Below are positions 3,229 to 9,063 of a stretch of DNA of 64,000 nucleotides, piece after piece (position 1 is the stretch's first letter; every line of letters starts with the position of its first letter). A model generated the notes under the pieces. It was not told the DNA's origin. It was given only the letters and a program-made list of their open reading frames with translations, and ran no database searches. The DNA comes from Enterobacteria phage vB_EcoM_IME281. Both the position numbers and the translations under genes were made by a program. The stretch lies in sequence record MH051913, one strand, 5' to 3'.

Positions 3229-4112
<884 letters not shown>

Positions 4113-4943: not shown

Positions 4944-5344
4944 TGAACGTTGAATATTATGTATATGCGGATTACGAAAATAATCCGTCTAAAGATGAAG
5001 ATAACCGTTTAGGTGTAGATGCTTTTGAATCCCCTGCAGCGGCATGGCAATGGGTTGAAAGAACTGATATTCCTTACCGTTATATTGAAGTTGTCGACCA
5101 CGCAGGAAACAAGTATCCTAAGGAAGCATATGTTCCTTCCGGAAAGGTAAATTTCCTTTTGTTTGCGGGTGATAATTATTATCCACGCGGCGGGTATACT
5201 GATTTAATCGCTAAAGCCTTCTCTGAAGATGAACTGCGCGATATCATTAAAGAAAACGAGAATAAGCCTCTTTACGGTTCTAATCGTTTTGGCTGGTGGC
5301 AGATTGTTAATGCCAATACCCACACTATTGTAGACGAGGGTTAA
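4943..5344 (+). CDS. hypothetical protein (133 aa)
   Basis: ORF track; ATGA stop/start coupling; no motif recognised. Confidence 0.5.
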   Translation: MNVEYYVYADYENNPSKDEDNRLGVDAFESPAAAWQWVERTDIPYRYIEVVDHAGNKYPKEAYVPSGKVNFLLFAGDNYYPRGGYTDLIAKAFSEDELRDIIKENENKPLYGSNRFGWWQIVNANTHTIVDEG

Positions 5345-5635
5345 ATGTTATACGTTAAGGTTACTAATCCAGAGAATGGCTATAAATCCGATCAGGTTGC
5401 AGCTGAGTTGTTGATTCGAAATTACGGCAAAGATGCTGTGCTTGATGTTCAACAGGTTAATATTGGCCGTAGTTCAAGCGATGTTAAACTCAAAGTTAAC
5501 AGCCAACGCTATAATTCTGTTAACTTTACTTTTTATACGGCAAATGAAAATGGGTTGGTCGAATATGACATCTTTAAAAATCCTTTGAAAATTGCTTCTA
5601 TTAAACTTGATTATATTAATATGTGGCCACAATGA
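5345..5635 (+). CDS. hypothetical protein (96 aa)
   Basis: ORF track; contiguous array. Confidence 0.5.
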   Translation: MLYVKVTNPENGYKSDQVAAELLIRNYGKDAVLDVQQVNIGRSSSDVKLKVNSQRYNSVNFTFYTANENGLVEYDIFKNPLKIASIKLDYINMWPQ

Positions 5636-6108
5636 ATATTAAATTCGGACAAATTATCCCTAAAGGTTATGCAATTGAAATTGAAACCTGGGAAAATGAT
5701 GGCGATAACTATAAAACCCAGACTGTATTTGGCGTAGAAGAACATGAAATCCAACAGTACAAATATATCCTAGAACTTTTCCATGGTTCTCATTGCAACA
5801 ACCCGGATAAATGTGGTAATTCGGAATGGGACGTAGTTAAGCATCTGGTTATTGCCCACATTGAATCGGGTGTAAAATCAGGCCAGTTGACCCCTGAATT
5901 TTTAGATAAGGCCCTCGGTATCCAAGACTTAGAAGCCTTGCTGAATGACGACGAGGAAGAATACTACTTGAATGAAGCCCTTACTGAGCTCCTTGGTATG
6001 GCTTGTGAATATGATGGTGATTTCATCCGTGTAATTTCTTACGTTAAGCTGTATATTATTGAAGAAGAAATTAAAATCCCTGATGTGAAAGCACTTGATA
6101 TGCTTTAA
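5632..6108 (+). CDS. hypothetical acidic protein (158 aa)
   Basis: First ATG in track ORF 5623 (GTG); overlaps upstream stop; D/E-rich C-terminal half. Confidence 0.5.
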   Translation: MNIKFGQIIPKGYAIEIETWENDGDNYKTQTVFGVEEHEIQQYKYILELFHGSHCNNPDKCGNSEWDVVKHLVIAHIESGVKSGQLTPEFLDKALGIQDLEALLNDDEEEYYLNEALTELLGMACEYDGDFIRVISYVKLYIIEEEIKIPDVKALDML

Positions 6109-6237
6109 GAATTATGTGATATTATTACTCTATCATTAATACCCTCTATTACCAAAGGTTCTTCCCTCAAAGAGCCTTTCATAATAGACAAGGTCTATTA
6201 ATCAAACTTACTTTACTTAATTTTATTTGAGGTGTTT

Positions 6238-6504
6238 ATGTTAGTATTAAAATTAGCTTTTTATGACCCAGAAACCAAGACAACAACTACTAAACGTTGT
6301 TCTATTTCATATGAATGCCAATTTGGCGAAGTTGAGACCGACGGCGAGCCCTTTATGGCAATTGCCGATAGCACATTCGCTAAACCAAAAATAATTCCAC
6401 TAGTTAATGCTGCGGCTTATCTGGTTGCTCCTGAAGAAATGACTTATCATACAATTCAGCACATGGCTAAAGATGATAATGCTCCTGCTGGATTTGTAAT
6501 TTAA
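6238..6504 (+). CDS. hypothetical protein (88 aa)
   Basis: ATG preceded by GAGGTG; track start 6232 is GTG. Confidence 0.45.
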   Translation: MLVLKLAFYDPETKTTTTKRCSISYECQFGEVETDGEPFMAIADSTFAKPKIIPLVNAAAYLVAPEEMTYHTIQHMAKDDNAPAGFVI

Positions 6505-6509
6505 ATTAA

Positions 6510-6583
6510 GGCCCTGTAGCTGGACGGTCAAGCGAGCGACTCATAATCGCTGGATGGTGGTTCGATTCCACCCAGGGCCACCA
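6510..6583 (+). tRNA. tRNA with CAT anticodon (Met or Ile2/lysidine)
   Basis: Hand-folded cloverleaf: acceptor GGCCCTG/CAGGGCC, anticodon stem AGCGA/TCGCT with loop CTCATAA, T-arm GGTGG-TTCGATT-CCACC, encoded CCA. Confidence 0.8.
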
Positions 6584-6587
6584 ATTT

Positions 6588-6662
6588 GGATGTGTAGCTC
6601 AGCGGTAGAGCAGTTGACTGTTAATCAATTGGTCCATGGTTCGAATCCATGCATGTCCGCCA
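6588..6662 (+). tRNA. tRNA-Asn (GTT anticodon)
   Basis: Hand-folded: D-stem GCTC/GAGC, anticodon loop CTGTTAA, T-arm CATGG-TTCGAAT-CCATG, acceptor with two G-U pairs, encoded CCA. Confidence 0.7.
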
Positions 6663-6666
6663 AATA

Positions 6667-6742
6667 CGAGGCATAGCTCAGAAGGAAGAGCAACGGTCTT
6701 CTAAACCGTAGGTCGTAGGTTCGATCCCTACTGTCTCGACCA
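6667..6742 (+). tRNA. tRNA-Arg (TCT anticodon)
   Basis: Hand-folded: D-stem GCTC/GAGC, anticodon stem ACGGT/ACCGT with loop CTTCTAA, T-loop TTCGATC, encoded CCA; T4 also encodes tRNA-Arg(UCU). Confidence 0.8.
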
Positions 6743-6945
6743 AACAAGAAACCGGGTCGCTACCGGTAAGTCGTCGGACTGAAGCTCCCTGAATAAGACC
6801 CGACTTTAAGGCGTACATGAGTTGACCTCTTAAAGTCCCTTATCTCACAGCTGAAACGGCGCACCGAACACTTGCCTAGCAGGTGGAACCCCGACAAGGT
6901 TACCCTAGGTGAAAGGCCCTTCCGAAAGGTTGGGCCTTTTTTTGT
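6743..6945 (+). ncRNA. candidate stable small RNA downstream of the tRNA cluster
   Basis: About 200 nt with no ORF, several local hairpins, ends in GAAA-loop terminator; T4 carries stable RNAs C and D at the equivalent position. Confidence 0.35.
6915..6943 (+). terminator. rho-independent terminator
   Basis: GGCCCTTCC-GAAA-GGTTGGGCC hairpin followed by a T7 run. Confidence 0.7.
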
Positions 6946-6952
6946 ATAAATA
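6945..6952 (+). promoter_or_regulatory. late promoter TATAAATA
   Basis: Exact T4 late promoter consensus 27 nt upstream of ATG 6979. Confidence 0.6.
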
Positions 6953-6978
6953 TACAGTAAACTAACTTAGGAAATAAT

Positions 6979-7533
6979 ATGAAACTTTTAAAATATTTGA
7001 GTTGGATTCTGTTGGTCCCACTAGATTTTATCTCTATGGTTCTAGCCGTTATCCTTGCGCCTTTTGTGGTTCCTTTTCATAATAAAAAGACTGGTAAATT
7101 GCCATACGGTTTTGATTGGATGATGACATACGATAATCCAATTGACGGCGATAAAGGTCATATTAAACGTTGGGCTAAAATCAGGAAAATGCCTGGTGGT
7201 GTTTATCTCCAGAGAGTAGCTTGGCTATGGCGAAATAAAGCTTATAACTTTGCTTATCATAAACTAGGCCGTGATTGTAGCTCGGAATTCCATTATCGTG
7301 GTAATCCTGACGTAGAATCAGGTTCTCCTGATAAAGCTCACCATGGTTGGTTGTGGATGTGGAATGATGACGCCTGGGGTGTATTTGCTTCAGTTCCTTA
7401 TCTTAAGGTCGGCGGAATCACATTTTACCTTCGCGTGTACTGTGGCTGGAAGCTTAAGAGTCTTTTGTCTCGTAAAATCCCTAAAGCTATGTTGGCCTTC
7501 CACGTGAACCCGTTCCGGTTCTACAAGAACTGA
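6979..7533 (+). CDS. Trp-rich protein with N-terminal transmembrane segment (184 aa), late-expressed
   Basis: Hydrophobic N-terminus; flanked on both sides by the same terminator/late-promoter module. Confidence 0.55.
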   Translation: MKLLKYLSWILLVPLDFISMVLAVILAPFVVPFHNKKTGKLPYGFDWMMTYDNPIDGDKGHIKRWAKIRKMPGGVYLQRVAWLWRNKAYNFAYHKLGRDCSSEFHYRGNPDVESGSPDKAHHGWLWMWNDDAWGVFASVPYLKVGGITFYLRVYCGWKLKSLLSRKIPKAMLAFHVNPFRFYKN

Positions 7534-7538
7534 TTTAC

Positions 7539-7565
7539 GGCCCTTCCGAAAGGTTGGGCCTTTTT
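7539..7565 (+). terminator. rho-independent terminator (copy of 6915-6943)
   Basis: Identical hairpin followed by T5 run. Confidence 0.7.
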
Positions 7566-7566
7566 G

Positions 7567-7574
7567 TATAAATA
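7567..7574 (+). promoter_or_regulatory. late promoter TATAAATA
   Basis: Exact consensus 29 nt upstream of ATG 7603. Confidence 0.6.
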
Positions 7575-7602
7575 GATAAGTTAATTAACACAGGAAACAA
7601 TA

Positions 7603-8220
7603 ATGAAAACTTACAATGAATTTTTGAACGAAAGCGTTCTGAATGAAGCCGGCGTGCGCATGACTAAAGATATGTGGCAAGCTGCTTATGATAAAATTTC
7701 CGGGACTAAAACCACTACCGAGTTCTTTAAAAACGTTTATGATATGTATGGTTTTGATACTAGTAGCCAGAAAGAATATTACAAAGCTTCCAAAGCTTTT
7801 AAAGATATCGTAGCCGGTGGCTCTACTAAGCCTGCTAAACCTGCTAAAGCTCCTGTTGCTAAACCTGCGGCTCAGCCCAAAGTTGCAGCACCGAAACCTA
7901 CACCTAAACCAGAACCTGTAAAAGAAGCTCCTAAATCTAAAATCAAGTTTGACACCAGCACTATAGTTAAAAAATATAACCAACTGGCTTCTTTAGTTTC
8001 TGAAATCGAATCTGAAACTAAACACCTTGTTCGTGAATTCAACGCTCTTCGTAACGGTCAACACATTAACAACCTGGATACCCCAGACCTGTATCGTCTC
8101 TATCTGACGGTTGAAGGCCTTAAGTATACCCAGCCTATGCGCGAAGAAATCAATAACAAACTTCGCCAAGCGGGCCGCATTGCTGGTGACGCAGCACAGT
8201 TCGAAAAGACTCGTAAATAA
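7603..8220 (+). CDS. internal-protein-like, CTS family, with Pro/Ala/Lys-rich linker (205 aa)
   Basis: MKTYNEFLNE|S N-terminus; PAKPAKAPVAKPAAQPKVAAPKPTPKPEP low-complexity linker; late promoter upstream. Confidence 0.6.
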   Translation: MKTYNEFLNESVLNEAGVRMTKDMWQAAYDKISGTKTTTEFFKNVYDMYGFDTSSQKEYYKASKAFKDIVAGGSTKPAKPAKAPVAKPAAQPKVAAPKPTPKPEPVKEAPKSKIKFDTSTIVKKYNQLASLVSEIESETKHLVREFNALRNGQHINNLDTPDLYRLYLTVEGLKYTQPMREEINNKLRQAGRIAGDAAQFEKTRK

Positions 8221-8225
8221 TGAAA

Positions 8226-8245
8226 GGAGACTTCGGTCTCCTTTT
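8226..8245 (+). terminator. rho-independent terminator
   Basis: GGAGAC-TTCG-GTCTCC hairpin plus T run. Confidence 0.65.
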
Positions 8246-8279
8246 AGGGGGTTTAATCTAAAAATAATTTCACAAAGTT

Positions 8280-8308
8280 GTTTACACCTCCTTTAAACAT
8301 GATACTAT
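8280..8308 (+). promoter_or_regulatory. early promoter/stem-loop cassette
   Basis: GTTTAC, 17 nt, TACTAT; core GATACTATAGACCTATCAAAACAACAGAGTGA. Confidence 0.6.
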
Positions 8309-8343
8309 AGACCTATCAAAACAACAGAGTGAAGGAGAGTAAA

Positions 8344-8607
8344 ATGGATAATTATGGTGAATTGTTTAATTTCTTTATGAAATGCGTTCCTGAAGAATTT
8401 GGTGCTACTGTTAACGATATTAAAGTTATCGGTCCTGAACACCCAGTGTATGAAACCTATGCAGTAATGGGTAATGAAGATGGACAGTGGTATACAATTA
8501 AAGTTGTGATTAGTATGTTCTCAGCTGAAGGCTACGCCAAATCGTCTACCAAAGTTTATCATGATAACGATTTTGATGCGGAAGAGTATTTCAATAATAT
8601 GAAATAA
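8344..8607 (+). CDS. hypothetical protein (87 aa)
   Basis: ATG after AAGGAGAG in cassette leader. Confidence 0.5.
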   Translation: MDNYGELFNFFMKCVPEEFGATVNDIKVIGPEHPVYETYAVMGNEDGQWYTIKVVISMFSAEGYAKSSTKVYHDNDFDAEEYFNNMK

Positions 8608-8609
8608 TT

Positions 8610-8639
8610 GTTTACATGGGCTCATGATTAAGATATTAT
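8610..8639 (+). promoter_or_regulatory. early promoter with hairpin
   Basis: GTTTAC then TATTAT; GGGCTCAT/ATGAGCCC inverted repeat around the -10. Confidence 0.5.
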
Positions 8640-8664
8640 GAGCCCATAATTTGAGGAGAACATA

Positions 8665-9063
8665 ATGAATATCGAAGATAAAGAAATGCAAGAGTTGTAT
8701 AATTCATTAACGCCTGAACAACAAAAAGCTGCCAAAGAATTAGAGAAAGCTCTTGCTTTCAACTTGGCAAAAACTGATTGGGCTGCCATGTATGAAGAAA
8801 AAACTAGATTAGAACTTGAAGCTGCTGAGAGAAATGAATGGATTGTCGAAACCAAGATTTCTGATGGTGGTTGCTCTGTTGAGGTGTCAGCTGTAGTTAA
8901 AGGCACTCATGGCGAAAAATCATGGGGTTGGCATAATGAAGCAAACAAACATATTGTTCTCTCAACGTCAAAAACTTATGGCCAAAGGGCTCCTGTATCC
9001 AAAGCTATTATTAAGCAAGCTCAATGGGAAGCCAATGAAATCTGCCTCGCAAAAATGAAATAA
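8665..9063 (+). CDS. hypothetical protein (132 aa)
   Basis: GAGGAG RBS; promoter cassette 8610-8639 upstream. Confidence 0.5.
   Translation: MNIEDKEMQELYNSLTPEQQKAAKELEKALAFNLAKTDWAAMYEEKTRLELEAAERNEWIVETKISDGGCSVEVSAVVKGTHGEKSWGWHNEANKHIVLSTSKTYGQRAPVSKAIIKQAQWEANEICLAKMK

Follow-up and report, generated by a model that had tools for sequence, protein, structure and literature searches.

A putative ortholog of the T4 stable RNA gene rnaD, with a covariation-supported fold, downstream of the tRNA array of Enterobacteria phage vB_EcoM_IME281

The transfer RNA (tRNA) cluster of phage T4 is transcribed as one precursor of ~1.75 kb, which ends after species I RNA and yields eight tRNAs together with the stable species I and species II RNAs, the products of rnaC and rnaD (PMC2330249). 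In the present study, we analysed a 64,000-nucleotide stretch of DNA from Enterobacteria phage vB_EcoM_IME281 (sequence record MH051913), hereafter called the window, with attention to the segment at positions 6743-6945, which directly follows a tRNA-Arg gene. An earlier reading of the letters alone (the original prediction) had proposed that this segment carries one candidate stable RNA, which might correspond to RNAs C and D of T4. On sequence comparison, positions 6744-6866 are a predicted, unannotated ortholog of T4 rnaD, which makes the element an RNA of known kind and no new class.

The genome is a JS98-like Dhakavirus (Straboviridae, Tevenvirinae), with 97.7% identity to phage JS98 across the 4 kb of positions 5000-9000, and the RefSeq record of JS98 leaves the gap between tRNA-Arg and orf136 without any annotation. 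The features of the locus are collected in Table 1. The Rfam scores of the three tRNAs are 62.6-71 bits, and the G+C content is 0.50-0.525 over 6500-6899 compared with 0.29-0.43 in the flanks. Within 6743-6945 there are solely mechanical open reading frames (ORFs) of 25-46 aa (6678..6818 and 6760..6897 on the minus strand, 6872..6949 on the plus strand); a PHROG search of these matched no family, and both flanking ORFs have PHROG matches (phrog_14864 and phrog_2143). The minimum free energy (MFE) of the 203 nt is -70.3 kcal/mol vs -56.1 +/- 4.3 for dinucleotide shuffles (z = -3.35), a value that 0/200 shuffles equalled. When the two parts were folded alone, 6743-6865 gave z = -1.98 on the plus strand and -0.25 on the minus strand, and 6866-6945 gave -2.84 and -1.64, respectively. 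The folding of 6743-6865 is strand-asymmetric and stronger on the plus strand. The original prediction was therefore accurate in its coordinates and in describing about 200 nt behind three tRNAs as ORF-free, structured and closed by a strong terminator. Its location for a candidate RNA also stands, but not its single unit, since the segment consists of two modules: the rnaD homolog at 6744-6866 and a trailer with terminator at 6867-6943.

Table 1. Features at and around the rnaD locus (positions are those of the window)
Feature	Position	Strand	Basis or remark
Candidate MotA-type middle promoter: TGCTTTA, 12-nt spacer, TATTAT	6101-6107 and 6120-6125	+	Read from sequence
tRNA-Met(cat)	6510-6583	+	ARAGORN; Rfam tRNA model agrees
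tRNA-Asn(gtt)	6588-6662	+	ARAGORN; Rfam tRNA model agrees
tRNA-Arg(tct)	6667-6742	+	ARAGORN; Rfam tRNA model agrees; CCA encoded, ends 6742
Predicted rnaD (species 2 stable RNA) homolog, ~123 nt	6744-6866	+	blastn, alignment, covariance model
A-rich single-stranded linker/leader AACAAGAA	6743-6750	+	Between tRNA CCA and P1; conserved (A)GAAR motif
P1 hairpin: ACCGG with CCGGU, loop GUCGCUA	6751-6755 with 6763-6767	+	Covariation, RNAalifold
Linker UAAGU	Between P1 and P2	+	AAGU before P2 nearly invariant
P2 5' strand CGUCG	6772-6776	+	Pairs with 6857-6861; closes the long hairpin
P2b: AGCU with AGCU	6783-6786 with 6849-6852	+	Covariation, RNAalifold
CCC bulge	6787-6789	+	Part of near-invariant YCCCUG motif
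P3 base: UGA/UCA and AUAAG/CUUAU	6790-6797 with 6839-6847	+	Covariation
P3 apical module	~6798-6838	+	Exists in at least three versions that are unrelated in sequence
P2 3' strand CGGCG	6857-6861	+	Followed by 3' tail CACCG at 6862-6866
Conserved 3' trailer	6867-6914	+	Same element 3' of rnaC in T4/RB27
Intrinsic terminator GGCCCUUCC-GAAA-GGUUGGGCC, then U7	6915-6936, then 6937-6943	+	Read from sequence; in MFE folds
TATAAATA, T4-type late-promoter consensus for ORF 6979-7533	6945-6952	+	Pattern match; 3' boundary, outside the RNA unit

The identification is carried by direct homology with annotated T4-type genes. In phage RB27, tRNA-Arg is followed by the non-coding RNA gene rnaD (given as 'species II RNA', 121 nt) and then by rnaC (139 nt); rnaD is also annotated in RB10, and rnaC in the record of T4 strain GT7. 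Positions 1-121 of RB27 rnaD aligned by blastn with window 6744-6866 at 77.6% identity over 125 nt (E = 2e-21), the end of the annotated RB27 gene falls on window 6866, and the two lengths agree at ~121-123 nt. The gene order tRNA-Arg(UCU) then rnaD is the same in the window, RB27 and T4, with the homology of the window beginning at 6744; as in T4, the element shares the strand of this tRNA and follows it directly on the 3' side, at the cluster's distal end. Searches with Rfam were silent on this family: at gathering thresholds the three tRNAs were the only matches in the window, at E <= 10 no hit fell on 6743-6861, and in the loci of five relatives tRNA was the sole family found on the rnaD homologs. 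The sub-threshold Rfam hits lay only on the trailer and terminator (BjrC68, 22.8 bits vs a gathering threshold of 39; NsiR1; BTnc231; Srn266).

When the whole segment was used as the blastn query, 738 phage records were matched, mostly in two pieces across ~345 nt and not ~205 nt. The three-way alignment places the difference at one point: the window tracks rnaD up to GGCGCACCGAA, jumps all of rnaC and resumes at ACACUUGCC, which is the post-rnaC sequence in T4 and RB27. Nowhere in the window did blastn find the 139-nt rnaC or its T-arm-like CCGGGUUCGAAUCCCGG; only chance matches of 11-23 nt appeared (E >= 0.28). Thus, the second stable RNA of the T4 unit, species 1, has no counterpart here, and the proposed correspondence with T4 RNAs C and D stands for RNA D by homology to RB27 rnaD and falls for RNA C. 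Nothing separates rnaD from the trailer in the window, in JS98 and at loci L009, L010 and L015; T4, RB27 and VR25 have rnaC in this slot. In L003 (IMG/VR contig 2706795408), the same slot contains an ORF of 127 aa at 3599-3982. The slot behaves like an insertion hot-spot. Many GenBank records of T4-like phages (e.g. H5, H10, H13, H19 and H30) carry one to three coding sequences named 'hypothetical protein' over the rnaD-rnaC interval, and these calls are probably spurious ORFs on RNA genes.

Such annotations, found under the match in many records, together with the 25-46 aa ORFs that overlap the region and a minus-strand terminator-like site that our scan gives at P1 (6767-6751), could be taken to mean that there is no RNA gene here, but a small protein-coding ORF, a decayed tRNA pseudogene or a minus-strand terminator. 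The small ORFs are without PHROG match, as said above, and the 45-aa minus-strand ORF crosses the junction of rnaD and trailer, so that in relatives it is split by rnaC or by the 127-aa ORF. Neither ARAGORN nor Rfam places a tRNA in 6743-6945. A minus-strand terminator would have nothing to terminate, because every credible gene within ~2.5 kb on either side (PHROG-matched, or annotated in JS98) runs on the plus strand. Furthermore, the substitutions in the helices are compensatory and not codon-patterned, and RNA-seq of T4 reports rnaD as a late RNA, a class given to both stable RNAs and supported by Northern blot with an RNAC probe (PMC9697503). We consider the chance that no RNA gene lies here to be practically negligible.

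To define the structure, homologs were gathered from GenBank phages and IMG/VR, including distant lineages. Comparison shows that in rnaD P1 forms a hairpin at the 5' side and is joined by an AA(G)U linker to a long irregular hairpin built of P2, P2b, the CCC bulge and P3. In the leader, GAA is near-invariant at columns 10-12 of alignment A2, a MAFFT alignment of 27 sequences. P1 is conserved as a helix and not as a sequence: in Karamvirus, Jiaodavirus, CR9 and PM2 its sequence is fully replaced with the helix kept (e.g. GUUGGAA-GACG-UUCUGAC), 5/7 pairs are changed on both sides, and the loop varies between GUCGCUA, UCGCU, GACG and AUUAGCUAA. P2 shows 100% of cells paired and an almost invariant sequence, in which a U·G pair is fixed in 31/31 sequences. 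Its few exchanges, read by eye, are compensatory GC to CG changes, at the second pair in one sequence (AS-sw, CCUCG/CGGGG) and at the fifth pair in two sequences (CR9 has CGUCC/GGGCG). For P2b, 5/6 pairs are changed on both sides, with the variants UGUU/AGCA in T4, UUAAU/AUUAA in CC31 and GAUAUU/AAUAUC in PM2. The YCCCUG motif of the bulge is invariant in A2 at its first and last C and at the following UG, and the middle C becomes U in L010, L015 and PM2a. At the P3 base, the figures for double-changed pairs are 4/5 and 7/8. With T4 rnaD the window has in common the architecture of P1, P2, P2b and CCC bulge; unlike T4, it carries AGCU/AGCU in P2b instead of UGUU/AGCA, a compensatory difference, and an apical module of ~40 nt in P3 that is an unrelated version, common to JS98 and VR25.

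Covariation across relatives, named beforehand as the check for this segment, supports the conserved fold. In A2, 84.9% of the 667 cells are paired, vs 32-49% in controls in which the 3' partners were slid by 1-3 columns, and 15/26 pairs are changed on both sides. The covariation score of 0.347 compares with 0.06-0.08 in the slid controls and was reached by 0/500 shuffles. Similar figures were obtained with alignment A4, which was fitted to the covariance model itself and holds 32 distinct sequences; across both alignments the double-changed pairs number 15-19. Unguided RNAalifold recovered P1, P2, P2b and P3, and single-sequence MFE folds gave the same architecture for most of the distant homologs. 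The covariance model R1, whose seed alignment includes the window sequence as one of 27, found one credible match in the window, over the full model length (112 bits, E = 5e-29), and recovered all known homologs. Unrelated viral contigs carrying the core 15-nt pattern, 0.9 Mb in all, gave no hits with it at E <= 1. A reading of 'CUGAUG...GAAAC' as a hammerhead, hairpin ribozyme or k-turn was also weighed by eye, and it was dropped as the internal loop is unconserved in Karamvirus and Jiaodavirus and no ribozyme model matched.

The element is found in Tequatrovirus, Dhakavirus, Karamvirus (CC31, Pet-CM3-4, EcL8g and VPA32), Jiaodavirus (vB_KpnM_17-11 and Mineola), Mosugukvirus and an unclassified straboviridae phage of Providencia. 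Among the homologs gathered are Providencia phage PSTCR6 and, with a weak score, the Aeromonas Ceceduovirus AS-sw. In addition, it occurs, unexpectedly, after a tRNA in the Vequintavirinae, which are not the subfamily of the T4-like phages, at 86-110 bits: L017 1493-1597 (A7_1), L144 475-584 (A73) and L141 454-562 (CR9). Every homolog lies within a tRNA array, on the strand of the tRNAs and a few to ~60 nt 3' of tRNA-Arg, Met, Asn, Lys or Tyr. Its presence in the Vequintavirinae points to horizontal transfer, with or without the tRNA neighbours. Degenerate-pattern scans of IMG/VR, metagenomes and GTDB returned, among the matches listed, almost entirely GC-rich chance hits; on filtering these with R1, no IMG/VR noise locus and 0/29 bacterial and archaeal genome hits were real, and one metagenome contig was.

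Some of these arrays show peculiarities of their own. The Pectobacterium phage PM2 (Mosugukvirus, L021) has two rnaD-like copies in one tRNA array, of which the one at 562-650 is short and without clear P1 (42.6 bits) and the one at 786-916 is full-length with a long P3 (52.5 bits). At the Karamvirus and Jiaodavirus loci (L018 880-1010, L020 880-1005 and L143), rnaD is followed by a CCGAAAG...CUUUCGG hairpin, ~120 nt that are ORF-free, and tRNA-Asp. A blastn search with rnaC matches Enterobacter Karamvirus records at 80-86% identity, and from these sequences the ORF-free stretch may be the local rnaC counterpart. In A7_1, L017 1320-1398 scores 33.9 bits with the Rfam tRNA model and is uncalled by ARAGORN; it lies just upstream of tRNA-Met, seems to contain an insertion and has an anticodon-like loop with UCU.

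The tip of P3 is hypervariable. Among T-even phages and Dhakavirus with near-identical P1, P2 and P2b, the apical ~40-50 nt occur in at least three unrelated versions (window/JS98/VR25, T4/RB27 and L005/L010), and these are found in differing flank backgrounds. The tips fold as a hairpin in all but two of 27, the exceptions being L005 and L015, whose versions do fold in their relatives. A fourth, short version has a 19-nt loop, GAGUUCCCUCAACGAUAAC, which is identical in Karamvirus/Jiaodavirus (L018, L019, L020, L022 and L143) and Vequintavirinae (L017 and L141), and the stem beneath it covaries. In the window, the AUGAG of the apical loop (6817-6831) is complementary to the CUCAU of the anticodon loop of tRNA-Met (6530-6544), a weak match of 5 nt that is not seen in the other versions.

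The exchange of this module between close relatives, and an identical loop on a variable stem in two phage families, are what would be expected of a base-pairing regulator or sponge, in which the P3 tip would be the seed and rnaD, or the ~200-nt unit of rnaD, trailer and terminator, would pair with host or phage RNAs. The model for such a function is E. coli 3'ETS-leuZ, a functional RNA that Lalaouna and colleagues reportedly described in 2015 and that is freed from a tRNA operon's 3' external transcribed spacer (ETS). The genomic logic is the same, as rnaD lies between the last tRNA and the terminator and would be liberated by the tRNA-processing machinery, and the unit here ends with a terminator hairpin and U7, the usual Hfq-binding 3' end. 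With 3'ETS-leuZ, however, rnaD has no sequence relationship; it is much the more structured of the two, and what is conserved in it is a scaffold of helices and bulges. These also hold the nucleotides that are invariant across the family, which are not found in an accessible seed. Within the window, no complementarity beyond chance was found (besides the duplicated terminator described below, one 12-mer vs 1.6 expected), and T4 rnaD as annotated is without terminator or U tail. Likewise, blastn found the element in none of 5,426 E. coli genomes and 72,556 plasmids, a result that speaks against a host or plasmid origin and only in part against pairing, blastn being blind to short seeds. We regard such a regulator as quite improbable.

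The hypervariable tip also invites a comparison with counter-defence RNAs, that is, with mimics of a clustered regularly interspaced short palindromic repeats (CRISPR) repeat (RNA anti-CRISPR) or of a tRNA element attacked by anticodon or tRNA nucleases of the host, which would titrate an immune effector. The T-even-type P1, with its 5-bp stem and 7-nt loop, is anticodon-arm-like, and the first 8 nt of the GAGUUCCCUCAACGAUAAC loop of CC31/A7_1 type are the 8-mer GAGUUCCC that starts the E. coli type I-E repeat. By eye, T4-type junctions looked I-F-like and the CC31-type loop I-E-like; this CRISPR-repeat mimicry was rejected because the scores are in the range of shuffles. Against the I-E, I-F, I-C and II-A repeats, the window and T4 rnaD scored within the shuffle distribution (107-476/500 shuffles as high), and the CC31/A7_1 8-mer is marginal at 10-29/500, as is CC31 against the Klebsiella I-E repeat at 44/500, these 8-mer figures being uncorrected for multiple tests. 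No CRISPR-DR or extra tRNA model matched in 6743-6945 by Rfam at E <= 10, the loop sequence of P1 is variable, and the invariant core (P2 and CCC) resembles no repeat known to us. There is other evidence in favour, from the biology of the region: a 2026 study treats the accessory tRNA region, within which rnaD lies, as an anti-defence locus with SegB-driven amplification (PMC13096335), and when the T4-like phage BW-1 was adapted to the semi-permissive E. coli ECOR34, the sole single-nucleotide polymorphism (SNP) common to three lines was in rnaD (PMC12685909). On balance, only a slim chance can be given to mimicry.

The second module of the segment, the trailer, is highly conserved and can be followed to the far side of rnaC: the post-rnaC trailer of RB27 matches window 6867-6950 at 82% identity (E = 8e-18, blastn). 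In eleven phages the mean column identity of the trailer is 92%, with next to no change in its first ~36 nt (AACACUUGCC(U)UAGCAGGUGGAACCCCGACAAGGUU). Covariation is uninformative for so uniform a sequence, except for a hairpin (GCC-GCAA-GGC vs ACC-CUA-GGU) and the stem of the terminator, which covaries with T4 (AGCCCC...GGGGCU). Small hairpins are possible at 6869-6885, 6887-6901 and 6902-6910. A search upstream for a long-range complement of the trailer, as in the rRNA-like stalk cut by RNase III, gave no such inverted repeat. Our guess is that the trailer is a signal for 3' processing or stability. The consensus scan missed the terminator, probably because of two U-U mismatches in its stem.

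This arrangement suits a reading in which the whole element works only in cis, as a structured 3' external transcribed spacer that, with the terminator, matures and stabilises the tRNA transcript, gives RNases their entry sites and blocks 3' exonucleases, the stable RNA being a long-lived by-product with no role in trans. The high conservation of trailer and terminator, the A-rich linker ahead of P1, and the constant position directly 3' of a tRNA, on its strand and within tRNA arrays of two phage families, are all in keeping with it, and the work on T4 counts rnaD within the ~1.75 kb tRNA precursor (PMC2330249). A spacer would need structure and not sequence, whereas P2, its U·G pair and YCCCUG are invariant or nearly so while the neighbouring helices covary. 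Moreover, the identity of the upstream tRNA differs between phages, from which it follows that the element is not adapted to any single tRNA, and the convergent rnaD SNP that arose during host adaptation of BW-1 (PMC12685909) speaks against a mere by-product. We therefore think a purely cis-acting spacer unlikely, though with a real chance of being correct.

At its 3' boundary the RNA unit meets the TATAAATA motif, which stands after the trailer in most relatives too; the window as a whole shows no enrichment of the motif, and thus the single site is suggestive only. The cassette of terminator hairpin, U-run and TATAAATA is exactly duplicated at 6915-6952 and 7540-7574, the second hairpin lying at 7540-7560. 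It includes the 19-mer CCTTCCGAAAGGTTGGGCC at 6918-6936 and 7542-7560, for which 0 occurrences are expected by chance. As the two copies bracket the 184-aa ORF 6979-7533 (phrog_2143), this ORF looks like a modular gene cassette.

For the biogenesis of the RNA, we propose that a single transcript, begun at the candidate middle promoter (6101-6125), would span ORF 6232-6504, the three tRNAs and rnaD. This candidate, recognised by its likeness to the MotA-dependent middle promoters of T4, lies upstream of that ORF and the tRNAs and overlaps a sigma-70-like hit (6095-6123) and the stop of ORF 5623-6108. The T4 tRNA precursor is processed by RNase E, RNase III and RNase P. An endonucleolytic cut of RNase E type in the A-rich linker, a role suggested by general tRNA 3'-trailer processing, would free both the 3' end of tRNA-Arg and the 5' end of rnaD. 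There is a distant parallel in the tRNA-microRNA units of murine gammaherpesvirus 68, where an upstream tRNA or tRNA-like element sets the ends of the small RNA. By analogy only, the adjacent upstream tRNA may supply the signal for the rnaD 5' end; domain of life, enzymes and product are different there. In the window, rnaD is directly followed by the trailer and not by rnaC, and hence its 3' end would not be set, as in T4, by formation of the rnaC 5' end, but by a cut near 6866 or by termination at 6943, with predicted products of ~123 nt and ~200 nt, respectively. P1 and P2, close to both ends, would make the product stable. For both co-transcription with the tRNAs and processing, the argument is from position and from the published T4 data.

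As regards function, none is given for the T4 species 1 and 2 RNAs in a 2010 review (PMC3014915), in the 2022 transcriptome (PMC9697503) or in a 2025 paper (PMC12685909). Because the invariant nucleotides lie in a helix and a bulge, with no long accessible strand, and no antisense target stands out, protein binding is favoured over base pairing. Our best guess, held with low confidence, is that rnaD is a nuclease-resistant, protein-binding RNA released by processing of the tRNA operon, which would act in trans as a scaffold or decoy and affect fitness in a host-dependent manner. A more specific proposal is that rnaD is a counter-defence or host-takeover RNA, whose invariant protein-recognition core (the P2 helix with its fixed U·G pair, and the CCC bulge) titrates a host RNA-processing or immune factor and whose P3 tip is under diversifying selection. 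It would explain the movement between Straboviridae and Vequintavirinae, the constant company of tRNA arrays and the sole convergent mutation of BW-1, but we see it as a long shot.

Taken together, an rnaD ortholog with a conserved fold, tRNA-operon processing and a trans-acting, protein-binding role form the joint best explanation, to which we assign a probability of roughly 0.85 as a whole, with low confidence in the role. Several points weigh against it. T4 phages with deletions of the tRNA region are viable on laboratory hosts. The covariation controls leave some phylogenetic signal, and since the sequences represent only ~6 lineages, many of the cells changed on both sides were inherited and are not independent events. 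Homing endonucleases abound in this region, and homogenisation by recombination might account for part of the strong sequence conservation of P2 and the trailer. Accumulation of a discrete ~123-nt RNA in this phage would be an extension from what is published for T4 (PMC3014915, PMC9697503), and the protein-binding decoy is a conjecture. The BW-1 SNP (164264) might have hitch-hiked, or the variant might have been present beforehand.

The species 1 and 2 RNAs of T4 are long-standing orphans of phage molecular biology. Relative to the literature found, the covariation-backed structure, the reach of rnaD into Vequintavirinae and non-T-even Straboviridae, and the natural rnaD-only arrangement are new; by this arrangement, rnaD can be studied without rnaC. 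JS98-type genomes leave rnaD unannotated, and both these records and the 'hypothetical protein' calls over rnaD and rnaC are correctable. In addition, the family is without an Rfam model, and one could be curated from the present alignment. The presence of rnaD at this position is what a specialist would expect, but with the invariant core and the swappable tip a more interesting reading stays in play, and the three new results, among them the comparative structure with its invariant helix-bulge core, provide handles for experiments.

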